Of a stretch of 10,202 nt of DNA, positions 1 to 10,202 are shown in pieces. The notes under the pieces were generated by a model. The model had not been told where the DNA came from. It ran no database searches and was given only the letters and a program-made list of their open reading frames with translations. The stretch is taken from the UHGV virus genome UHGV-0155057; one strand, written 5' to 3'. Position numbers and translations under genes: made by a program. The DNA comes from a virus. Positions within the stretch are counted from its first letter, which is position 1. Each line of letters opens with the position of its first letter.

Positions 1-22
1 AATTGAAAATAATAACGTGATT

Positions 23-51
23 AAAGAGCGCCAACAAGGCGCTCTTTTTTT
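23..51. terminator. Bidirectional rho-independent terminator hairpin at the 3' end of the tailspike gene
   Basis: Inverted repeat 23-32 / 38-47 (aaagagcgcc ... ggcgctcttt), 10-bp stem with 5-nt loop aacaa, followed on the plus strand by a T-run through 51 and preceded by an A-run. Tailspike stop codon (complement of 50-52) abuts the stem. The U-tract is good on the plus strand and weaker on the minus strand. Confidence 0.5.
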
Positions 52-2032
52 AAAATCCAACGTTATCGTCCAATACAGCACCAGTGCCTGTAGAGTTAAC
101 TCCATCTGCAACGCTATTCCATCTTGTCCCGATAACCGTGTTATTCACACCTGCTTCACGCACTGCGGAACCTGAACCACCAGATGATGAAATAGTTGAA
201 TTTCTTAACTGAATACCTCTTGATTTTACGTCTATATAGATTCCGGCCTGAGATGTATTGGAGTAATCAAAGTTACTTATTGAGTTACCTGAAGCTATTA
301 CGGCAATACTGTTCTCAAATCTTAACCCCTCCATACGTGTATTTCTAATAACGTTATTCGACACAATACCAATAGTTAGACCAACAATAAGTATTCCTTG
401 CGTGTTATTAGATAAACCTCTTGTGCCTGCATTATCAACAATATTGTTTGAGATATTAAACCCGTTAAAATTATTTGTTACCTCGTCCCTGTATACGTAA
501 ATTCCAGCGATGGTAGAATCAGTTATCGTATTACCAGTTATGACAATATCTGTCATGTTTTGGCTTTCCCATTCTCCTGCGGCTCCATACACTCTTATTC
601 CGCGTTTGCAGTTTGTTATTGTATTTCCACTAACTACGTGTCCCTTGCAGTTTAGATCACCAAAAAAGATACCATCATCTCCGGATGAAAGTTTATTGTT
701 TTCGATGCGACTAAAGTCACATCTTTGGTTATCGATAGCGTTACCTAAGAATCCTTCTATCGTGTTTCCTGATGATGAGAAGTGTTTTTGGCTTTGGGCG
801 CTTACACCCTGATTATATGGATATCCTGGTTTACCTGATATATAACAATCTTTTACGCTGTTGTAGTATGCATAAGATTCGTTAAGTTCAGGATATGTAT
901 ATGGCTGTCTAAAAAAAACTCCCCAATTGCATGAACTAAAATAACAATCTTTTACAGTGCAACCTGAAACCCCGTCAAATATTATAGTTGTTCTGTCGTA
1001 ATCTATTCCATCATTTCCACAGTTATTGGCGAAACATTTTTCAATTGTTACTCGAACACAGAAAAGATTATTATCATAGTCTCCAGATACTCCTACAAAT
1101 GGTTTTTTAAGGTCAGTCGCTCTGCATTTGTAGATGTGTATATCAGAAAGACCAGCGTTGACAATTACCCCTCTGCTTGTTAATCCATTGGAACCATCGA
1201 AAATAATGTTTTCTATTGCCGAATTACTACCTGTAAATCTCAGCATAACGGCATTGCTTGCTTTCGACTCAGTTATTGTTGCATTTTTAAATGTTTTACC
1301 ATGCTGAATTTGTATACCATTACCTGATACAAGGTATGTGTTTGCAACACCATCAATATTGCTTGATGAAGCAATTGCATTATTAACAGCTTCCGTGTCA
1401 TCAGTAATACCGTCTCCATAAGCTCCAAACATCAATGGGTTTACTACATCAGCATTAATGCGTAACCAAGCCGAGCCACCAACAGTTTTAACTATAGTCC
1501 CGTTGTTATCAGAGTAAGATTCACCATGTAAAACAGCGCGAAATCTACCACCACCAATCCCTGTTCCATCTGTGTGTTGCTTAAGAGTTATTATTTGGCC
1601 ATCAACCGTTGGCTCTATTGTTCGTAATGTGACAATGTCTGGACATACTCCTATATATTTTTGCCCATCAAAAGAAGAGAGTCTCTGCTCAAGCTGATCC
1701 GGGTCATACTTCAGCACATTAGGAAAATAGAACTGCTGCGCACCGTACGCATCATAAACAGCCATAGAATGGCCTTGCACAGTTACGAATTTGGCAATCT
1801 GTCCGTTATATACAGGATAACCAGCAGTGTTAATGATGATTGGTTGCGATACAGGAACGTGAGAGCCGTCTTCGTTCTCCACATAAACCTGAATCTGGTT
1901 TTCAGGATTTACAGGGTCAGTGTCAATTTTACCGATATAAATTTTGCCATTGGCTACAGCTTTAAAAGAACGAGCCATAGTGAAGAGTTGAGAAGGCATG
2001 CTTACCACAACATTTGCGGTGATATCTGACAT
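50..2032 (-). CDS. Phage tailspike protein: P22 gp9-type N-terminal head-binding domain plus a divergent right-handed beta-helix receptor-binding/depolymerase domain (660 aa)
   Basis: The track ORF 50-2080 contains [70 protein letters not shown], which from memory closely matches the first ~110 residues of P22 tailspike ([13 protein letters not shown]...[25 protein letters not shown]...). I trimmed the start to the ATG at complement 2030-2032 ([10 protein letters not shown]), which has GGAG 8 nt upstream on the minus strand (tggagcaatgaaATG). The remainder is rich in N/G/S/T/I/V repeats typical of parallel beta-helix tailspikes. Confidence 0.85.
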
Positions 2033-2057
2033 TTCATTGCTCCAGACGAATGATATG

Positions 2058-2080
2058 ATGCAACCACGATGTGATTGCAT
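2058..2080. promoter_or_regulatory. Candidate operator: 23-bp imperfect palindrome in the divergent tailspike/mnt intergenic region
   Basis: ATGCAACCAC-GAT-GTGATTGCAT: the 10-nt arms match 9/10 as reverse complements, centred at 2069. It lies between the tailspike ATG (2032) and the mnt-like start (2154). In P22 the Mnt operator is a near-symmetric site overlapping a promoter in the equivalent region. No promoter hexamers could be assigned confidently. Confidence 0.35.
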
Positions 2081-2153
2081 ACCGAAATGGTACTATTGAG
2101 TATTTATCCAGTAGGTTACGATGCCATTCCACCCAACTGGTGAGGCATCAAGG

Positions 2154-2414
2154 ATGTACAGCAAATACGACGAGGCGCAGTTTCACTTGAGACTTCCGCA
2201 TGAACTCCACGCGAAAATTAAACAGCGTGCGAAGATGAATAACAGATCGCTGAACTCAGAGATAATTGCAGCGATTGAGGAATCATTGGATAAACAAAGC
2301 TCTGCATCAGTTTACATTGACGATGCAGAGCTTATGGCAGAACAACAATCTGATATGGTTAAGAAAATTGTCTTTGATACGCTCAAGGAGCTATATAAAA
2401 AAGACAGCAACTAA
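2154..2414 (+). CDS. mnt: Mnt-like ribbon-helix-helix (Arc/MetJ family) transcriptional repressor (86 aa)
   Basis: The translation MYSKYDEAQFHLRLPHELHAKIKQRAKMNNRSLNSEIIAAIEESLDK...DDAELMAEQQSDMVKKIVFDTLKELYKKDSN aligns by eye with P22 Mnt as I recall it (...RMPMEVREKLKFRAEANGRSMNSELLQIVQDALSK...NDAERLADEQSELVKKMVFDTLKDLYKKTT). Start chosen at ATG 2154 (GGTGAGG 8 nt upstream) rather than the track start at 2121, to match Mnt length. It is transcribed opposite to the late operon, as in P22. Confidence 0.75.
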   Translation: MYSKYDEAQFHLRLPHELHAKIKQRAKMNNRSLNSEIIAAIEESLDKQSSASVYIDDAELMAEQQSDMVKKIVFDTLKELYKKDSN

Positions 2415-2434
2415 CCATCCATTACGGAGGATTT

Positions 2435-2512
2435 ATGCAAAGAGATATGATGAATATTGCGTTCTACATATTTGGTTTTTGCACGTTCCTGGTGTTTGAA
2501 AAGCTATTCTGA
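2435..2512 (+). CDS. Possible 25-aa hydrophobic peptide (MQRDMMNIAFYIFGFCTFLVFEKLF) immediately downstream of mnt; speculative
   Basis: ATG at 2435 is preceded by CGGAGG (2425-2430, short 4-nt spacer), 21 nt after the mnt stop. The peptide has a strongly hydrophobic core resembling a single transmembrane segment. It sits where P22 carries sieA, and its 3' end overlaps the convergent gp16-like stop. No homology evidence. Confidence 0.25.
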   Translation: MQRDMMNIAFYIFGFCTFLVFEKLF

Positions 2513-4501
2513 CAACGCATCAGACTTAGCCCCCTGCGTCAGAGCGTTAATTGCCTTTTGTGCCTGCTGCATTGCTTTCTCAAAGGCTGTTGATCCGCGT
2601 GGGGTGTTTGCCATTCGGAGCATTGCATTTCTGAATGGTTCGCTCTCATAGGCGCGAGTAAGAAGTCCGTAGCTTACTGCTGCGCCAGTTGTCGCTGGGT
2701 TCATTGCCGTCCCATACCCAATAATGAACGGGATAGTTTGCTGCCCTGTAGGTGTTGTTACTGCCGCTTTTGCAGCCTGCTGCGTGGATTGCAGGTAGTT
2801 TTTTAATCCATTCAGATAAGCAGCGTCCTGCCCCTTAAATGTGATGCCAGTCTGGTTTTGCAGGATGTTAAGCTGCCGAAGGAACTGGTCAGGGGAACCA
2901 CCTGATTTCTCCATCGCCTTTCCAATGATGCCATTGCGCATTTGCGCCCTGCCAACACGACCAACTGAGTTATACAGAGTCTTAATTTCCGATTTGTTCT
3001 TGCTGAATAGCATGTTGTTGACAACTTCTGGCGTCAGATCGCCTTTCATGAGAACATTCTTCAGCCTGGTATTCTTGAGTTTCGCTGCTTCGTCAGCATA
3101 GACGGCATTGGCCTGCTGATATTTACGGAGAGTATCGTTGCCAAGATTCTGACCAATGGCACCATTGATATCGTCGGTCATTGCCTTGTAAACGCGCTGA
3201 ATGGCAGCATCGGAACGGTTTGGTAACACTGGTCGCTCACCCTTCACGTCCATTCTGAACTGGCTGCGCAGATCGCTTAATTGCTTCAAATCCAGATTTA
3301 CCGGACCATCAGGACCAGCATTGCGAACAAGCTCATCACGATAGGACTGAAGTTTTGAAATAGTCTCGTTATCAGCAACCTTACCAAGCTTCTGCAGGTT
3401 AGATATTTCTGTATCAATCTGCTGAATTGCTCTTGCAGGCTGAATGTTTATTCCCGCCATAGCATTCTGAACCTGCTCCAGTCGATTTCCTGCAGCGCGA
3501 CGAATTCCTGATGTTTTCGCTTTAAGGCTGTCAATAACAACCGCTGGATCATACTCACCGAATTTATCAGCAAATCTCTGAACCAACTGGCTTCTCGCTT
3601 CCTGTTGCGTTGCTCTCATTCCGCTTGTGCCAGCCAGGGGGATATTTTCTGCTGTCGTTTGCGCCATTTTTCCGACGCGGGAAGTAGGCTGTAACAGGTC
3701 GGTGGTGTGCAGAGGCACTCCTTCACGCTCTGCAAATCTGATAGCTTGCTGCGCTTCTGGTGCAATAGCACCACGAACGCCACGATAAGCAGCGCCTAAT
3801 CCACGTCCGGCAGCGTTAATAGCGCCGCCAGCCAGAACGCCAACGCCTAAATCGGTAGCGAGTGCTTCCGCATCATCTTTCGCACTATTTGCAGCAAGTG
3901 ACCCGACTGCGTTTTCAGCGAGAAGGCGAGTTGCACCCTGAGCGATTCTACCAGCGAGTGTTGGTGCCTGTGTTGCCGCTCTCTCAATGCCAGCAGGAGT
4001 GAGGTAAGGCAATGCCTCAGAAAATACCCTGCCCTCTGTAGTTTGTGGAGTCAGCGCGCCTTGCTGAAGGCCAAAGTCCTGCTCTAATCCCTGCGTTGTT
4101 ACTCGTGGCGCTGGGTGATATGTCCCATCGCCAATTCCGAGTTTACCGCCAGCCCAAGCCGCCGCGCTTGTTACAGCATCGGCAACTGATGCAGGTATGT
4201 TTGCCACGTTCACGCCAGCCTGCACCAGTCCGCGACCAGTCTCTTTTACTGCTTCACCAAGATCAGACATAAATCCACTTTGCTGTGGTTGTTGCTGTGC
4301 TACTGGTTGTTGTGTCTCCACTGGCTGCACAGATGGCAATGGATAGGCAGCATAGAAAGCTTGCTTAGCCTGCTCTGCATTTTCTCCGGCTTGCGGGGCA
4401 ACGACTTCATTGAAGTATTGCTCCTGAGCCTGCGCTTTTTGTTCTGGTGCTAACGCCTGATACTGTGGAGAGGCGATAACATCTTTCCATGCTTTAGCCA
4501 T
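2504..4501 (-). CDS. Phage ejection (DNA-transfer/injection) protein, P22 gp16-like by synteny (665 aa)
   Basis: Long minus-strand ORF with an Ala/Gly/Gln-rich composition typical of podovirus ejection proteins. It is the last late gene before the mnt/tailspike region, the position of gene 16 in P22. Its start overlaps the upstream stop as TAATG (complement of 4499-4503), indicating translational coupling. Confidence 0.65.
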   Translation of the reverse strand: MAKAWKDVIASPQYQALAPEQKAQAQEQYFNEVVAPQAGENAEQAKQAFYAAYPLPSVQPVETQQPVAQQQPQQSGFMSDLGEAVKETGRGLVQAGVNVANIPASVADAVTSAAAWAGGKLGIGDGTYHPAPRVTTQGLEQDFGLQQGALTPQTTEGRVFSEALPYLTPAGIERAATQAPTLAGRIAQGATRLLAENAVGSLAANSAKDDAEALATDLGVGVLAGGAINAAGRGLGAAYRGVRGAIAPEAQQAIRFAEREGVPLHTTDLLQPTSRVGKMAQTTAENIPLAGTSGMRATQQEARSQLVQRFADKFGEYDPAVVIDSLKAKTSGIRRAAGNRLEQVQNAMAGINIQPARAIQQIDTEISNLQKLGKVADNETISKLQSYRDELVRNAGPDGPVNLDLKQLSDLRSQFRMDVKGERPVLPNRSDAAIQRVYKAMTDDINGAIGQNLGNDTLRKYQQANAVYADEAAKLKNTRLKNVLMKGDLTPEVVNNMLFSKNKSEIKTLYNSVGRVGRAQMRNGIIGKAMEKSGGSPDQFLRQLNILQNQTGITFKGQDAAYLNGLKNYLQSTQQAAKAAVTTPTGQQTIPFIIGYGTAMNPATTGAAVSYGLLTRAYESEPFRNAMLRMANTPRGSTAFEKAMQQAQKAINALTQGAKSDALSE

Positions 4502-5616
4502 TAATCACCCCATAGTGAAGAAAAGTTACTGCTGGCTGCTGGCTGTGATACCTGTGCAGGTTGAGATTGCTGCCGCTGAGATTTACCAACATTAACGTTA
4601 TATTGTTGGTTGTAATTGTTGGTGTATTCCTGAATCTCACGAATCGACTGCTGCATAGCCTCCGGGCTTGAATAGTCAACCTGCGGCATCCCCTGAAAAT
4701 ACATCTTCGCTTCTGCAACGGTGTTAATACCACTGGCACCCATGTCCCTTGCTGCTGCCACCCCCTGATTCTGCATTCTTCCCTGAATACGTTGTGCTGA
4801 GTTATATAACTGGCGCTGCTCTTTTCCTGTTAATCGGCTGCGAACATCAGCACCAATTGCCGGGTTACCTGCACCGCCTGTCATTCCTGTCATGAAATCG
4901 AGAGCAGAAGCGTCTGCATTTGCGATCGCGTCGATATCCTTCTTCATGGCATAGTTTTGTGCTGATGCAGACGATGTTGCAGGCGCTGCGATTGAACTGG
5001 CAGGAACGCGAACCATATTCCCCTCGTTGTCGATGCCTTCGTAGAACGCATTAGCCCCAGCGCCGTGAAGTTTCCCGCCTACCGTTACAGTTCTGCCATC
5101 TGATAACTGAACTGTACGCTCATCATTACCAGCGGTTCCTCTTGTTGACGCTCTCTGCATTGCCAAATCCTGCCCGCGTCGCGCAGTAGAAGCAGATAAA
5201 TCCTGACCGCGCATCGTGATGTTCTGACCTCGTGCTGTTAGCGCCTCGCCAGCCTGATTGCTGCGGATTGTCTCTGCAAGTTTTCCGCGATCAATCTCAC
5301 GCCCAACGATTCTGTCTTGCGCCTGAAAATATTGTTCTGGACCAAGAGCAGCCATTCCAAGGTGATCAACAAACTCACCAAATCCTGAAGGATTCTGCTG
5401 ATACATCTGAGCAACGTTATTAGGGTCAACACCGACGCGAGTCAGTTCCTTGGCGTTGTTTTGCAGCCATGATTGCATTGCTTCTGGAGACGATGACGCA
5501 AGGCGTGCGCCAGCCGCTAAGGTGCCGATAGAATTACGCTGGTCTTCATCAATGAATCCCATGCCTTTACGAACGGATTCAATCTGGTCTGGATATTGAG
5601 TAGCCAACTGACGCAA
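4501..5616 (-). CDS. Phage ejection protein, P22 gp20-like, apparently 5'-truncated (likely gene remnant)
   Basis: The minus-strand frame is open only up to 5640 (in-frame stop at complement 5641-5643). The track start at 5616 is TTG and no ATG follows until codon 19. The longest possible product is about 379 aa against roughly 430-470 aa remembered for gp20 homologues. Its 3' end is coupled to the gp16-like start. Assignment is by synteny and composition only. Confidence 0.5.
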
Positions 5617-5640
5617 AGCACCGCGATGGCAAGGTGTGGG
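5604..5640. other. Putative deletion/recombination junction where a 5'-truncated late gene meets a 5'-truncated early-left gene head-to-head
   Basis: The plus-strand recombinase frame opens only at 5604 (in-frame TAG at 5601-5603) and the minus-strand gp20-like frame closes at 5640. Both genes lack their expected N-termini and the two open frames overlap within this 37 bp. Confidence 0.5.
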
Positions 5641-6254
5641 CTATGGTGCTGGCTTATGTCACGAACCGGGCAATCATGAAACGCCTGGACGATGTTTGTG
5701 GCAAAGCAGGATGGCGCAATGAATACCGCGACATTCCCAACAACGGCGGCGTTGAATGCGGCATATCAATAAAGATTGATTCCGAATGGGTAACCAAATG
5801 GGATGCTGCTGAAAACACGCAGGTAGAAGCCGTCAAAGGTGGTCGTTCAGGTGCAATGAAGCGCGCTGCCGTTCAGTGGGGAATCGGTCGGTATCTGTAT
5901 AACCTTGAGGAAGGTTTCGCACAAACATCTCTCGACAAAAAGCAGGGATGGCACAGGGCAAAACTCAAGGATGGAACAGGATTTTACTGGCTCCCTCCAT
6001 CGCTGCCAGGCTGGGCAATCCCAGCATCAGATAACAAACCATCACCAGAAAATACCAACCAGAAATCTCCATCGGTTGACTGCGAGCAAATCCTGAAAGA
6101 CTTCAGCGATTATGCGTCAACAGAAACTGACAAGAAAAAACTCATCGAGCGTTATCAGCGTGACTGGCAATTAATGGCTGGCAACGAGGAGGCGCAGGCT
6201 AAATGCGTTCAGGTAATGAACATCAGAGTTAACGAACTAAAACAGGCGGCATAG
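5634..6254 (+). CDS. Rad52/Sak-family single-strand annealing protein (phage recombinase), apparently N-terminally truncated
   Basis: Contains [21 protein letters not shown] and [23 protein letters not shown], which I recognise as the conserved core of Rad52-like phage annealing proteins. The frame opens only at 5604 and roughly 25-35 N-terminal residues appear missing. Possible starts are GTG 5634 (track) or ATG 5643, which has AAGG 8 nt upstream. Confidence 0.6.
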
Positions 6255-6770
6255 ATGGCAAGCAGAGGCGTAAATAAGGTGATCATTATTGGTCGCCTTG
6301 GGCATGATCCAGAAATCAGATATTCACCATCAGGAACGGCATTTGCAAACCTTACAGTTGCTACGTCAGAACAATGGCGTGATAAGCAAACTGGAGAGCA
6401 AAAGGAGCAGACGGAGTGGCACCGTGTGGTAATGAGCGGGAAACTGGCAGAAATTGCCAGCGAATATCTGCGAAAAGGCTCTGAGGTTTATCTTGAAGGA
6501 AAATTGCGGACAAGAAAATGGCAGGATCAAAGCGGACAGGATCGGTTCACTACCGAAGTTATCGTGGGCGTTGGTGGAACCATGCAAATGCTTGGTGGCA
6601 AGCAAGGAAGCAATGAACAGTCTTCACCTCAGCGAAATAACGGCCAGCAACAAAGACAGCAATCTCAGCAGCATGGGAATCACAGCGAACCACCTGTGGA
6701 TTTTGACGACGATATACCCTTTGCGCCAGTAACTCTCCCCTTCCCTCGTCACGCTATTCACGCAATTTAA
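6255..6770 (+). CDS. ssb: Single-stranded DNA-binding protein (SSB) with a 15-residue extension beyond the canonical C-terminal DDDIPF
   Basis: [98 protein letters not shown]...DFDDDIPF closely matches E. coli SSB across the OB fold and acidic tip. The ATG at 6255 directly follows the upstream stop. The ORF continues as [15 protein letters not shown] (6723-6767) before TAA at 6768-6770. Confidence 0.9.
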
Positions 6771-6778
6771 GGACTTAC

Positions 6779-7327
6779 ATGAATCACTTGATGGTTGACC
6801 TTGAAACAATGGGCAACGGGCCATACGCGCCTGTTATTTCTATTGGGGCGGTATTCTTTGACCCGAATACCGGAGAAACAGGAGAAGAGTTCTCGGTAAA
6901 TATCTCGCTTGAGTCATCAATGCGATATCGGGCGCGTCCTGACGCTTCAACGATTTTATGGTGGATGGAACAGAGTGAAGAAGCCAGAAAATCGCTAACC
7001 AGCAACACTCAAGAGCTTTCAACGGCTCTTTCATGGTTATCTGAATTCATCATAAAGAACGCTAACCACAAATTCGTTCAGGTTTGGGGGAATGGAGCAT
7101 CATTTGACTGCGTTATTCTCCGAAACAGTTATTCGCTGACAGGGCAGCCAGTTCCGTGGCAGTGGTGGAATGACCGCGACGTAAGAACAATCGTCGAACT
7201 TGGGAAGGTAATAGGATTCGACCCTAAGCGAGATATGCCATTCAAAGGAACTCGCCACAACGCGCTTGATGATGCCATTCACCAAGCCAAATACGTTTCA
7301 GCGATCTGGAAAAAGTTAGCTAAATAA
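6779..7327 (+). CDS. DEDDh-type 3'-5' exonuclease (DnaQ-like fold), 182 aa
   Basis: Exo motifs are readable: MVDLETMG (Exo I, D-x-E), VWGNGASFDCVIL (Exo II) and TRHNALDDAIHQAKY (Exo III, H-x3-D). AAGGA RBS sits 6-7 nt upstream of the ATG at 6779. Confidence 0.8.
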   Translation: MNHLMVDLETMGNGPYAPVISIGAVFFDPNTGETGEEFSVNISLESSMRYRARPDASTILWWMEQSEEARKSLTSNTQELSTALSWLSEFIIKNANHKFVQVWGNGASFDCVILRNSYSLTGQPVPWQWWNDRDVRTIVELGKVIGFDPKRDMPFKGTRHNALDDAIHQAKYVSAIWKKLAK

Positions 7328-7343
7328 TCAACAGGAGAAAACC

Positions 7344-7637
7344 ATGCCAGCGCCTCTGTATGGTGCGGATGACCCGCGCCGCTGTTCCGGCAATTCCGTA
7401 TCGGAGGTGCTGGATAAATTCAGAAAAAACTACGACCTGATAATGTCGCTACCGCAGGAAACGAAAGAGGAAAAGGAATTTCGCCATTGTATATGGCTTG
7501 CAGAGAAAGAAGAACGCGAGCGAATTTACCAGACATCAATCCGACCATTCCGCAAAGCCACATATACCCACTTCCCTGAAATTGACCCGCGCCTGCGTAA
7601 TTACCGCTCACGCTATGGCGCTATCAGTAATGACTGA
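7344..7637 (+). CDS. Hypothetical early-left accessory protein (97 aa)
   Basis: ATG at 7344 with AGGAG 7 nt upstream. Charged, protein-like composition, same strand and tightly packed with its neighbours. No family recognised. Confidence 0.6.
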   Translation: MPAPLYGADDPRRCSGNSVSEVLDKFRKNYDLIMSLPQETKEEKEFRHCIWLAEKEERERIYQTSIRPFRKATYTHFPEIDPRLRNYRSRYGAISND

Positions 7638-7647
7638 GGAATTAACA

Positions 7648-7938
7648 ATGAAAACAATGAAGCTAAACATCGACCTCGGAAAATACGTTATTACCGGAAC
7701 CAAACACGATCTGATTCTTAGCGAAAGAGGAATTATCAAAGAAGGCGAGAATGCAGGGAAAGAAACACTAAGCCGTATCGGTTATTACAGCAAGTTTGAG
7801 CATCTGGTTAAAGAATTATGCAACCGTGAAATCCTGTTATCTCAGGCGCAGACGCTACAGGATATTCAGCAACATATCGAGACTTTAGGTGTGTCACTTA
7901 GCATGGCTATTGACCAGTTAGTGGAGAGTAAATCATGA
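7648..7938 (+). CDS. Hypothetical early-left accessory protein (96 aa)
   Basis: I chose ATG 7648 ([17 protein letters not shown]...), which has GAGGA 7 nt upstream and begins 11 nt after the upstream stop. The longer track ORF from 7498 would overlap the preceding gene by 140 nt in another frame. Confidence 0.6.
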
Positions 7939-8099
7939 GAGGACTTGCATACAATCCCGGCATTCTTCCGGCAGAAATGATTATTCGCCAACGCGTAAAG
8001 CCAATGCCATCGAGAGAGGAATTGCTTAAAAGAAATAGTTTCGGTTCTGTTAATGACAACAAATATCTGAATGCGATATGGCGGAGTGGGAAGAAATGA
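7935..8099 (+). CDS. Hypothetical small protein (54 aa; below the track's apparent size cutoff)
   Basis: The start ATG overlaps the upstream stop as ATGA (7935-7938) and the stop overlaps the next start as ATGA (8096-8099). Translation is [54 protein letters not shown]. Support is coupling and context only. Confidence 0.4.
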
Positions 8100-8692
8100 A
8101 ACAAATGTCACTAATTGAGATGGATGGATTTCTGAAAGGTAAATGCATCCCACGAGATTTAAAGGTTAACGAAACAAACGCTGAATATCTGGTGCGTAAA
8201 TTTGCTGAAGCGGAGGCCAAGTGCGCGGCGCTGGCAGCGGAGAATACGGGGCTGAAGTCTGGCGCTATGGACGAAATCAAGGTTATCAACCGTGGAGGGC
8301 AGGCATATTGTGTAAAAGATGGAGTGCAAGTTAATCCCATGTATGCAAGAGGGTGGAATGACTATCGCGCAAAGTCTATGCAATCATACACCCCAGCCAC
8401 CGATGCTTTCCTGGCTGGAGTGCGGGCCAGCTCCATTCCTGAAGGTTACGTGCTTGTACCTCAACAAATTTTTCTCAAACCATCCGACATTGAATCTATT
8501 TGCTCTCAATGTGGTGACGGTCATGAATCTGGGTACGGTGATTTTACTGATGGGCTGCTGTGGATTGGCAACATTCAATGTGACGACGGAAGTATTGTCC
8601 ACGGACTGCATATCTCATCAGCCGATTACTCAGAGGAAGGCGGTGTAACAGTTTGCGAGTTCGACGCAGGCATGTGCATCAAAGGAGAGTGA
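8096..8692 (+). CDS. Hypothetical phage early protein (198 aa) with a coiled-coil-like N-terminal region and a Cys-rich C-terminal region
   Basis: ATG 8096 is coupled to the upstream stop; an alternative ATG at 8078 lacks an RBS. The C-terminal region carries CSQCGDGH...QCDDGS...VCEFDAGMC, suggesting possible metal binding. No family recognised with confidence. Confidence 0.6.
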
Positions 8693-8693
8693 T

Positions 8694-9377
8694 ATGAGCA
8701 CTATCACTAAAGAACGTATCGAATTGTTCATTAAATCCCCGCTTAAAAACGGGCTTACCCGTGGCGAACAAATGGAACTGGCACGGATTGCTCTGGCATC
8801 GCTGGAAGCTGAAAAGGTAACTCTCTATCGCGAGCGAAATCCCTACAATGGCATGACGACCGGATGGCAGGAATTGACCGAGCAGGAATACGAGTTTGTC
8901 AAAGATAACGCCAGTGAAAACGCCGAATTTCGTACTGTGTACACCGCACCGCCAGCGCCGGTAGTACCTGCTGCATTACCTGAGAACGACGATGAGGACG
9001 GGCAGGACATTGATTATCTTGAGCCATCTGAAGTTTACGCGCTTGGGCGAACAGCTGGCTGGAACGCCTGCCGTGCTGCCATGCTTCAGGGTAAATCCGA
9101 ACAACCACAAAACGCACAACAAAATATTCCGGAAAATATTCCCGGTGGCAACTCTCCGGTAACTCCGGATGGTTGGATAAGCTGTAGTGAGCGAATGCCG
9201 GAAGAAACGGGTGACATTATTGTTGTTTCGGATGGCATTGTAATGTCAGGGATTTCTTATTCTCGTCGTGACGGGTTCTATATGGCCGCATTGGAGTACG
9301 ACGACGACGAACCAATTGACGGTGTAACCCACTGGATGCCTCTACCAGAACCGCCGCAGGAGGTTAACGGTGGCTAA
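8694..9377 (+). CDS. Eaa-like early protein with a C-terminal DUF551-type domain (227 aa)
   Basis: AGGAG 6 nt upstream of ATG 8694. The C-terminal segment PDGWISCSERMPEE...DGVTHWMPLPEPP resembles the DUF551 signature seen in prophage Eaa proteins, recalled from memory. An acidic linker precedes it. Confidence 0.65.
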   Translation: MSTITKERIELFIKSPLKNGLTRGEQMELARIALASLEAEKVTLYRERNPYNGMTTGWQELTEQEYEFVKDNASENAEFRTVYTAPPAPVVPAALPENDDEDGQDIDYLEPSEVYALGRTAGWNACRAAMLQGKSEQPQNAQQNIPENIPGGNSPVTPDGWISCSERMPEETGDIIVVSDGIVMSGISYSRRDGFYMAALEYDDDEPIDGVTHWMPLPEPPQEVNGG

Positions 9378-9654
9378 CCTGCAACTTGCCGTTAAAGGTG
9401 AATACTTCGATGCCATGATTCGCAGAGAGAAAACAGAAGAGTATCGCCTGTGTAATGACTATTGGAATAAGCGAATTATGTTCCGGGAGTATGACCGCCT
9501 GATTATCACAAAGGGATATCCGAAGCGCGACGACTACAGCCGTAGAATTGACGTCCCGTATGACGGATATGAAATAAAGACAATCACACATCCACACTTC
9601 GGCGATAAACCGGTAAAGGTATTCGCGATAAAGGTGAATATCGGCAATGAATAA
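9370..9654 (+). CDS. ASCH / PUA-like (DUF3850-type) domain protein (94 aa)
   Basis: GTG start at 9370 with GGAGG 7 nt upstream, overlapping the upstream gene by 8 nt. The N-terminus (L.VKGEYFDAMIRREKTEEYRLCND) fits the ASCH-type K-x-x-E-x-R pattern and the small beta-barrel length. Confidence 0.65.
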   Translation: MANLQLAVKGEYFDAMIRREKTEEYRLCNDYWNKRIMFREYDRLIITKGYPKRDDYSRRIDVPYDGYEIKTITHPHFGDKPVKVFAIKVNIGNE

Positions 9655-9688
9655 CAATCCTCGCACTCGCGGGGATTTCTTTTATCTG

Positions 9689-9714
9689 AACTCGCTACGG
9701 CGAGTTTTGTTTTA
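9689..9714 (+). terminator. Putative weak intrinsic terminator or attenuator
   Basis: Hairpin aaCTCGC-tacg-GCGAGtt followed by the T-rich tract TTTTGTTTT. The GC stem is only 5 bp, so this is weak. Confidence 0.3.
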
Positions 9715-9726
9715 TGGAGATGATAA

Positions 9727-9894
9727 ATGCACTTCCGAGTCACAGGAGAATGGAATGGAGAGCCATTCAACAGAGTTATCGAAGCAGAGAACATCAACGA
9801 CTGCTATGACCACTGGATGCTATGGGCGCAGATAGCACATGCAGACATAACCAATATTCGAATTGAAGAACTGAAAGAACACCAAGCCGCCTGA
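9727..9894 (+). CDS. Hypothetical small protein (55 aa) between two terminator-like hairpins
   Basis: ATG 9727 with GGAG 7 nt upstream. Translation is MHFRVTGEWNGEPFNRVIEAENINDCYDHWMLWAQIAHADITNIRIEELKEHQAA. The TGA stop (9892-9894) lies in the loop of the downstream terminator. Preferred over the overlapping track ORF 9647-9835. Confidence 0.4.
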   Translation: MHFRVTGEWNGEPFNRVIEAENINDCYDHWMLWAQIAHADITNIRIEELKEHQAA

Positions 9895-9909
9895 TGGCGG
9901 TTTATTTTT
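9884..9909 (+). terminator. Rho-independent terminator at the end of the early-left gene block
   Basis: Stem GCCGCC (9886-9891), loop TGAT, GGCGG(T) (9896-9901) with flanking A:T pairs, followed by TTTATTTTT. Confidence 0.55.
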
Positions 9910-9916
9910 GCCTGAT

Positions 9917-9932
9917 TTGCAGGTTCGATTCC
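9917..9932. other. tRNA T-arm-like 16-mer (TTGCAGGTTCGATTCC); possible attachment-site core remnant, not a tRNA gene
   Basis: Contains the GGTTCGATTCC T-loop consensus with a 5' stem half, but no matching 3' T-stem, acceptor stem or upstream tRNA body. From memory it resembles the T-arm of an arginine tRNA (argW-type) used as an integration site by P22-like/KplE1-type elements. Confidence 0.3.
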
Positions 9933-9951
9933 CTATTCGGAGATAGCACTC

Positions 9952-10152
9952 ATGCAACACGAACTACAACCTGATTCACTGGTTGATTTGAAATTCATCA
10001 TGGCTGATACTGGCTTTGGTAAAACCTTCATCTATGACCGGATTAAGTCCGGCGACCTGCCTAAAGCCAAAGTTATCCACGGGCGAGCAAGATGGTTATA
10101 TCGTGACCATTGTGAATTCAAAAATAAGCTCTTAAGCCGCGCCAATGGGTAA
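9952..10152 (+). CDS. xis: Excisionase / recombination directionality factor, AlpA-family winged helix, TorI-like (66 aa)
   Basis: GGAG 9 nt upstream of ATG 9952. The translation (..LVDLKFIMADTGFGKTFIYDRIKSGDLPKAKVIHGRARWLYRDHCEFKNKLL..) matches the excisionase pattern of a helix, I/FYxxI/LKxGxxPK, then a G-R-x-x-RW wing. Its size and position at the prophage end are as for TorI of KplE1 and the Sf6/HK620 excisionases. Confidence 0.8.
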   Translation: MQHELQPDSLVDLKFIMADTGFGKTFIYDRIKSGDLPKAKVIHGRARWLYRDHCEFKNKLLSRANG

Positions 10153-10202
10153 AATAGCGGGTAAAATATTTCTCACATCTCAAAAACACCATTCCAATCA
10201 AT

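Follow-up and report, generated by a model that had tools for sequence, protein, structure and literature searches.

UHGV-0155057 is a viral sequence of 10,202 nucleotides (nt), referred to here as the window, and close to one of its ends lies the tailspike gene that is the subject of this analysis. By exact-protein look-up, positions 1 to 10202 of the window correspond to positions 12032 to 1831 (reverse strand, 100% identity) of an Escherichia coli scaffold, L001, and the tailspike is 100% identical to a gene called on E. coli scaffolds; NCBI already holds its protein as “phage tailspike protein,” and its only match in NCBIfam is to a generic beta-helix repeat. The tailspike is a mosaic of at least three modules (a virion anchor, a D3'-like domain and a beta-helix) with a further patch inside the helix (Table 1), and the evidence supports a history in which the anchor was joined to a receptor domain from elsewhere. 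The extent of the gene is the one given in a preliminary description made from this DNA's letters and open reading frames (ORFs): the stop, the ATG at position 2032, the GGAG placed 8 nt 5' of that start codon, and the lengths of homologues all agree. A reading of 676 amino acids (aa) from an in-frame ATG at 2080, longer by 16 residues, was rejected, as the Shine-Dalgarno sequence sits before 2032, and is unlikely because all homologues with the head-binding domain are 660 aa long.

Table 1. Features of the tailspike gene and its surroundings (window coordinates, except where L001 is named)
Feature	Position	Strand	Basis
Tailspike gene, 660 codons plus TAA stop at 50-52	50..2032	-	ORF list and translation
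Residues 1-115, P22-type head-binding (virion anchor) domain	1688..2032	-	Pfam PF09008; alignments to Sf6 gp14 and P22 gp9
Residues 116-236, D3'-like beta domain ending in FGAxGDGxTDD cap motif	1325..1687	-	Pfam PF27114 Phage_tail_beta; CBA120 TSP2
Residues 237-660, right-handed parallel beta-helix, predicted to bind and cleave polysaccharide, 37.3% GC	53..1324	-	
Residues 361-660, internal recombination patch defining the allele	53..952	-	Comparison with P0002-P0015
Invariant polar cluster on four successive beta-helix rungs, predicted active site	593..862	-	Conservation among 52 members
GC-rich hairpin between the convergent tailspike and acyltransferase genes	23..47	.	RNA fold, -17.8 kcal/mol, z -4.26
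Acyl_transf_3 membrane acyltransferase, 29.6% GC	L001 12013-13032 (3' end is the first 20 nt of the window)	Convergent with tailspike	
mnt-like Arc/Mnt repressor gene	2121..2414 (start 2154 more likely)	+	Pfam Arc E 1.2e-14; Repressor_Mnt E 4.7e-12
gp16-like ejection gene, intact	2504-4501	-	PHROG 770 DNA transfer protein, E 2.6e-238
gp20-like ejection gene, about 87 N-terminal codons gone	4501-5616	-	Pfam Inj_translocase, profile positions 83-217 of 218
Junction of the ~27-kb internal prophage deletion	5622..5627	.	blastn against Sf6, 6-nt overlap of gene 12 and gene 28 alignments

The anchor is that of P22-like phages. Residues 1 to 113 match the Pfam Head_binding profile (PF09008) over its full length (positions 1 to 113 of 113; E value of 2.5e-67), and in a search of Protein Data Bank (PDB) sequences, residues 1 to 115 align with Sf6 gp14 (E value of 1.5e-63), to which the domain is nearly identical, and with P22 gp9 (E value of 7e-51). 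The phmmer alignments to P22 and Sf6 stop at about residues 115 to 152, with E values of 14 or more for any further segments, and no lengthwise alignment of the receptor domain to the PDB sequences of the P22 gp9 or Sf6 gp14 endorhamnosidases was found. Compared with Sf6 structure 4urr in Foldseek, the receptor domain reaches a template modeling score of 0.40, which denotes likeness at the level of the fold only. These results bear out the preliminary description, according to which the first ~110 residues resemble P22 gp9 and the remainder is a different domain of beta-helix type.

The same boundary is visible in the DNA, where the head-binding segment is 87% identical to Sf6 and 95 to 98% identical to prophages in 1,156 of 5,426 complete E. 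coli genomes. Homology to both ends at positions 1674 to 1695 (codons 113 to 119), and megablast found no match in the 5,426 genomes for the remaining 1.6 kb of the tailspike, which encode the receptor domain. For P22-like phages, the conservation of residues 1 to 115 and the unrelatedness of the C-terminal receptor domains were set out in 2008, and the mosaic boundary is known to fall directly after a YDPDQ motif (PMC2629481), as it does here. The mosaicism of this tailspike is of a textbook kind; reports of this pattern in P22-like phages go back to at least 2008 (PMC2629481; PMC10408124).

The receptor region that follows the anchor is itself composite. Its first part (residues 118 to 236) aligns with the tailspike TSP2 of phage CBA120 (residues 255 to 371 of PDB accession number 6w4q and residues 14 to 130 of 5w6p; E value of 1.9e-32), and we use the term D3' coined by the TSP2 authors for the matching fold module (PMC7506556); the Pfam assignment of this domain (PF27114) was precomputed on the gene product. 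The D3'-like domain alone, at 55 to 62% identity, is common to tailspikes with other beta-helices, such as P0060 to P0068, those of phages IME10, Huey, Louie and Dewey (matching over residues 1 to 221) and that of SEN22 (matching over residues 1 to 253). Because it is found alone with quite different helices, the domain acts as a separate, exchangeable unit. Mosaicism as such was correctly seen in the preliminary description, but the two parts recognized there become at least three modules.

The remainder of the protein is, as in P22-like tailspikes, a C-terminal right-handed parallel beta-helix. An AlphaFold2 monomer model of residues 116 to 660, built with 55 homologues (mean pLDDT of 93.7; pTM of 0.90), has regular three-strand rungs up to the last residue, with no additional C-terminal domain. 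Helices of this family are uncommon: a HMMER scan of 1.84 billion cluster representatives recovered 37 proteins at an E value of 1e-3 or less and 7 at 1e-30 or less, and the 50,697 deposited phage genomes contain no close relative (>35% identity) of this receptor-domain type. Besides the P22-type anchor, at least three further kinds are found at the N-terminus of homologues of the receptor module (Tail_spike_N, Calx-beta with Tail_spike_N, and none recognized); where such alternatively anchored homologues have a source name, they come mostly from Enterobacter genomes, and the others are from run or metagenome assemblies and metagenomic phage contigs.

An additional exchange is recorded inside the helix. 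Other 660-aa alleles from E. coli (P0002 to P0015) are 96 to 99% identical to the tailspike at residues 116 to 360 and only 73 to 86% identical at residues 361 to 660. In one such copy, at locus L005, nucleotide identity is 99.2% over codons 116 to 236 and 83.5% over codons 237 to 660, with a synonymous divergence (dS) of 0.67 and a nonsynonymous-to-synonymous ratio (dN/dS) of 0.13 in the beta-helix (237 to 660), and the acyltransferase gene downstream is again 99.5% identical. A patch of about 900 nt (positions 53 to 952) has therefore been swapped in a cassette that is nearly identical elsewhere, and a collection of 5.8 billion proteins yielded no closer donor for residues 361 to 660.

Base composition changes at the same boundary as homology. 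The GC content of 42.9% in the head-binding part falls to 37.9% in residues 116 to 660, where GC at third codon positions (GC3) is 27.0%. The intact gp16-like gene and the truncated gp20-like gene have GC contents of 50.8% and 50.2%, respectively, with a GC3 of about 44% in both; the rest of the window stands at 48.1%, and any other stretch of 1,635 nt in it has a GC content of at least 45.3%. The GC profile is far from uniform across the window, and the value of 38% previously estimated from stretches of the tailspike gene holds for the receptor domain, but the 53% set against it for the adjacent ejection genes was too high, the comparator being 50 to 51% with local peaks of 55 to 56%. As far as such inference goes, the low GC content marks foreign origin: GC3 is 27% against 44%, the drop falls on the homology breakpoint, and the AT-richness runs on into the neighboring gene. 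The suggestion that this module came from a different source is thereby upheld, except that the foreign low-GC segment is not the receptor domain alone but a 2.8-kb cassette that includes the acyltransferase gene.

It is highly improbable that the low GC content reflects, in place of foreign origin, the amino acid composition of an Asn/Ser/Thr/Ile/Gly-rich beta-helix or a local mutational bias. The protein is indeed rich in these five residues, and the receptor domains of Sf6 and HK620 also lie below their backbones (44 to 46% versus 48 to 51%), but the difference in GC3 from the ejection genes places the bias at synonymous sites, the drop coincides with the loss of DNA homology at codons 113 to 119, and the low GC content extends into the unrelated acyltransferase gene (29.6%). 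Moreover, a 70%-identical homologue of the receptor module in another phage has a GC content of 48.8% and a GC3 of 49.5%. This homologue (L003, positions 6001 to 8019, and L004) has a different N-terminus and lies on a metagenomic phage contig of about 44 kb encoding a tape-measure protein, a family A DNA polymerase and an SNF2 helicase; its GC content of 49% matches that of its phage. Given a 70%-identical homologue at 49% GC, the fold needs no AT-richness, and the low GC content is a matter of lineage history.

Conservation points to a candidate active site within the helix. In all 52 of the 52 family members compared, which extend down to about 30% identity, residues N391, Q408, S411, Q415, F428, N431, D434, D453, F456, G458, D459, C475 and R480 are invariant. 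Their spacing of 19 to 25 residues corresponds to one rung per turn in the strand pattern of the model, and with about one rung between successive positions, they are expected to line up on a single side of the helix. They fall on rungs that align with the active-site region of TSP2, defined by experiment, at residues 568 to 600 (E568, D571, R594). The catalytic residues of TSP2 are Asp506, Glu568 and Asp571 (PMC7506556), and the transfer of these residues by alignment was tried and failed, as the corresponding hmmsearch columns hold S, T and G; E426 lies one column off D571 in this alignment, whose identity is low enough for a one-residue shift. From conservation, a glycan-cleaving center is predicted at D434, D453 and D459, to which E426 and R480 may contribute; the most likely catalytic arrangement would combine the three aspartates with R480 and with N391, Q408 and Q415 on neighboring rungs.

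By analogy with all characterized tailspikes built in this way, three copies of the protein should assemble into a homotrimer able to bind and cleave a polysaccharide of the host surface, with O-antigen the most likely target, and it is reasonable to infer that its polysaccharide specificity differs from that of P22 and Sf6. Several points weigh against this assignment. The active site is not transferable from TSP2 by homology, since its D506, E568 and D571 are replaced by S, T and G; that the invariant residues cluster in space is deduced from their spacing in the sequence; the depolymerase role of this beta-helix family is argued by analogy; and the target might be capsule or another glycan instead of O-antigen. 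As to chemistry, acid/base glycoside hydrolysis is most likely, because the nearest relative and, as far as is known, the characterized P22-like tailspikes are hydrolases.

A possible, although distinctly less probable, alternative is that the beta-helix is a polysaccharide lyase, acting by beta-elimination on a uronic-acid-containing capsule, colanic acid or O-antigen. In such an enzyme, D434, D453 and D459 would bind Ca2+ or neutralize a carboxylate and R480 would serve as the base; the invariance of these four residues is compatible with an acidic site of lyase type with an Arg base, and three aspartates together with an arginine recall the sites of pectate lyases, which makes the alternative a real one. 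None of the lyase families gave a significant sequence match, the sole hint in Pfam having an E value of 0.008, below the cut-off. Certain tailspike-like proteins are deacetylases or mere binders, and the receptor domain could likewise bind its glycan only, or strip a substituent from it as an esterase or deacetylase, with the backbone left uncut. We regard this as very unlikely, since Pfam, PHROG and NCBIfam scans detected no SGNH or other esterase domain and a carboxylate cluster strictly invariant across 52 diverse homologues resembles a glycan-cleaving center. Hydrolysis by the predicted acidic center remains the favored chemistry.

The receptor domain belongs to a larger exchanged unit. 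Sf6 homology breaks off at tailspike codon 113 and returns exactly at the stop codon of int, and the replaced segment of 2,836 bp consists of the receptor domain (37.9% GC), a hairpin and the acyltransferase gene (29.6% GC). The acyltransferase gene lies directly 3' of the tailspike and adjoins int at the prophage end, which is the arrangement of a phage serotype-conversion cassette. This position is GC-poor, although less so, in Sf6 as well (44.3% in the receptor domain, 41.8% in oac) and in HK620 (45.7% in the receptor domain, 32.5% in the modification gene). O-antigen-modification genes behind the tailspike have been published for Lederbergvirus, as have a systematic link between receptor domains and host O-serogroup and the horizontal transfer of these domains across phage genera (PMC10408124).

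The acyltransferase has no recognizable similarity to Sf6 Oac beyond the broad Pfam family (best BLASTP E value of 0.013), no tblastn match in the 50,697 phage records and no match in NCBIfam. It is always found alongside tailspikes of this type (at L001, L005 and L007 to L010, six loci in all), at 99.5% identity even where the C-terminal half of the tailspike differs. Five further E. coli loci (L005 and L007 to L010) have the same tailspike, acyltransferase and int together at argW, and their upstream late and immI regions vary in the presence of ant and arc and in the types of needle and gp16. A constant trio beside differing upstream regions indicates that the cassette moves as one unit and that the backbone carrying it is mosaic. 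Presumably, the acyltransferase modifies the same polysaccharide that the tailspike recognizes, thereby blocking superinfection. The hairpin between the two genes has ten pairs, seven of them in a GC-rich core, is flanked by an A-run and a short T-run, and is likely a bidirectional terminator. It was spotted by eye and by folding, the consensus terminator scan having missed it because the T-run is short; an Rfam scan of the window returned no family at the gathering score.

On L001, the genes follow the order of the Sf6 prophage, in which attP lies upstream of int: yfdC-like, tRNA-Arg(CCT) (argW), int, Acyl_transf_3, tailspike, mnt, gp16-like, truncated gp20-like, truncated erf/Rad52-like, ssb, exonuclease, abc2, ea-type genes, DUF551 and a LysR-family host gene. 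The tailspike lies downstream of the ejection-protein genes, as in the P22-type late operon. The mnt-like gene (86 aa as called on L001) runs divergently right beside the tailspike, arc and ant being absent from the gap. Positions 2033 to 2414 showed no clear promoter or operator, nor did consensus scans around the tailspike gene yield a convincing promoter, promoter-like sites being fewer than in shuffled controls. Among relatives with the same tailspike, arc and ant are both present in L005 and L007 and both missing in L008 and L009.

As the preliminary description held, the head genes are lost: the truncated gp20 homologue abuts, head to head, an erf/Rad52-like gene short of about 25 codons (positions 4501 to 6254), with the junction at 5622 to 5627. 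Positions 5203 to 5627 correspond to Sf6 gene 12 minus its first 262 nt and positions 5622 to 6709 to Sf6 gene 28 (erf-like) minus its first 75 nt, and the 6-nt overlap of these alignments suggests illegitimate recombination at a microhomology. Measured on the Sf6 map, between the equivalents of P22 gene 20 and erf, the deletion took the start of the early-left operon, the immunity, replication, lysis, terminase, portal and coat genes, tail genes 4, 10 and 26, gene 7 and the start of the gp20 homologue. With head, tail and other virion genes deleted, the prophage cannot make virions. In L008 and L009, by comparison, the same tailspike is preceded by the full set of coat, gp4, gp10, gp26, gp7, gp20 and gp16 genes. 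An assembly artifact at the junction was rejected, as the junction is identical on two independent assemblies; the remnant was seen on only four contigs, which likely represent one clone or sample, and the two loci retrieved from them share the junction exactly.

Beyond the junction, the early-left region (positions 6255 to 10202) appears intact. It encodes ssb, an Rv2179c-like exonuclease and abc2 (anti-RecBCD), as well as ORFs at 7498 to 7938 (PHROG “replication initiation protein”), 8078 to 8692 (Ea22-like), 8694 to 9377 (DUF551) and 9370 to 9654 (94 aa, family phrog_625).

That the tailspike gene survives intact in a prophage without head genes is correct as a description, but it is not a sign of selective retention. 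Copies in apparently intact argW prophages of other E. coli have 98.4 to 98.8% nucleotide identity to it (23 to 31 nt and 5 to 7 aa differences), and the divergence between remnant and intact prophages equals that of the flanking chromosome (~98.7% identity). With near-identical copies in apparently intact prophages, the intactness of the gene is no evidence of selection or domestication, and the deletion is probably recent.

It is very improbable that the tailspike, perhaps with the acyltransferase, is retained by selection because it serves the bacterium, for example in remodeling its own surface glycan as WceF does. In its favor are an intact gene in a prophage unable to make virions and the match of WceF (6tgf) to residues 7 to 218 (positions 1379 to 2014; E value of 3.4e-21), which includes the head-binding-like part and points to at least one past domestication of a tailspike from this lineage. 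Against this stand the copies in apparently intact prophages, whose degree of divergence requires no selection, and the deletion of the late promoter region with no convincing upstream promoter found by consensus scan. In addition, no secretion signal was noticed (no predictor was run), and the four contigs of the remnant are likely of a single origin. Very improbable, too, is a broader scenario in which the int/acyltransferase/tailspike/mnt/gp16 block is kept by the host, with the tailspike as a cell-owned glycan remodeler in an early, WceF-like domestication, and in which swaps of the half-helix (residues 361 to 660) in a constant frame retune specificity.

We consider it highly probable that the locus is an Sf6/P22-like (Lederbergvirus-type) prophage at argW that carried a modular tailspike depolymerase and a serotype cassette and lost about 27 kb, the tailspike being a leftover. 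Under this explanation, residues 1 to 115 would plug the spike into a P22-type tail, residues 116 to 236 would serve as a D3'-like adapter, and the trimeric beta-helix of residues 237 to 660 would bind and cleave the surface polysaccharide. The receptor part and the convergent acyltransferase gene would constitute one low-GC serotype cassette of 2.8 kb (~30 to 38% GC), exchanged by recombination relative to Sf6, one breakpoint lying where the head-binding domain ends and the other at the stop codon of int, and a second exchange near residue 360 would have produced the present allele. A single illegitimate deletion across the 6-nt overlap would then have removed the ~27 kb, leaving a prophage from which no virion is possible and a tailspike gene that is a recent, still intact leftover. 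Of this explanation, the module boundaries, base composition, fold, homologies, genomic context and deletion are directly shown, and the trimer, the enzymatic activity with its catalytic residues and substrate, the role of the acyltransferase and the recency of the deletion are predictions.

Tailspike receptor domains are the main determinants of the O- and K-serotypes that a podovirus can infect, and catalogued receptor domains serve serotype prediction, diagnostics and the engineering of phages. The receptor-domain type described here would add one uncharacterized specificity, with a matching acyltransferase, to that catalogue. Conceptually it brings nothing new, as earlier work already covers well the swapping of anchors and receptors, serotype cassettes of low GC content and the decay of prophages.

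Among known systems, the tailspike shares its anchor and its C-terminal beta-helix with the P22-like tailspikes (P22 gp9, Sf6 gp14, HK620 gp9, CUS-3 and epsilon34), and its gene occupies the same place as theirs, after the ejection-protein genes and before an O-antigen-modification gene and int. It departs from them in that its receptor domain has no significant sequence similarity to any of theirs and a GC content of 38% (versus 44 to 46% in Sf6 and HK620), in the D3'-like domain between anchor and helix, and in the lack of a separate C-terminal domain past the helix. Its closest solved relative is TSP2 (ORF211) of CBA120, a Kuttervirus, an O157-specific glycosidase (5w6p, 6w4q), with which it shares the D3' module before the helix and the homologous D3 beta-helix. 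Unlike this protein, TSP2 is anchored by domains for the assembly of a TSP complex and continues into a D4 domain that is absent here, where the protein ends at about TSP2 position 702 of 921; given the missing D4 and the lack of conservation of D506, E568 and D571, specificity certainly differs from that of TSP2.

In layout, the nearest counterpart is Sf6 gene 14 with oac (gene 15), where a receptor domain, a terminator hairpin, a convergent Acyl_transf_3 gene and int beside argW follow one another in the same way and an annotated terminator stands at the position equivalent to our hairpin; the two cassettes differ in that the acyltransferase here is not recognizably Oac-like. Finally, WceF of Pantoea stewartii is a secreted tailspike-like glycan hydrolase encoded on the chromosome in an exopolysaccharide cluster, whereas the gene described here sits in the remnant of a prophage.

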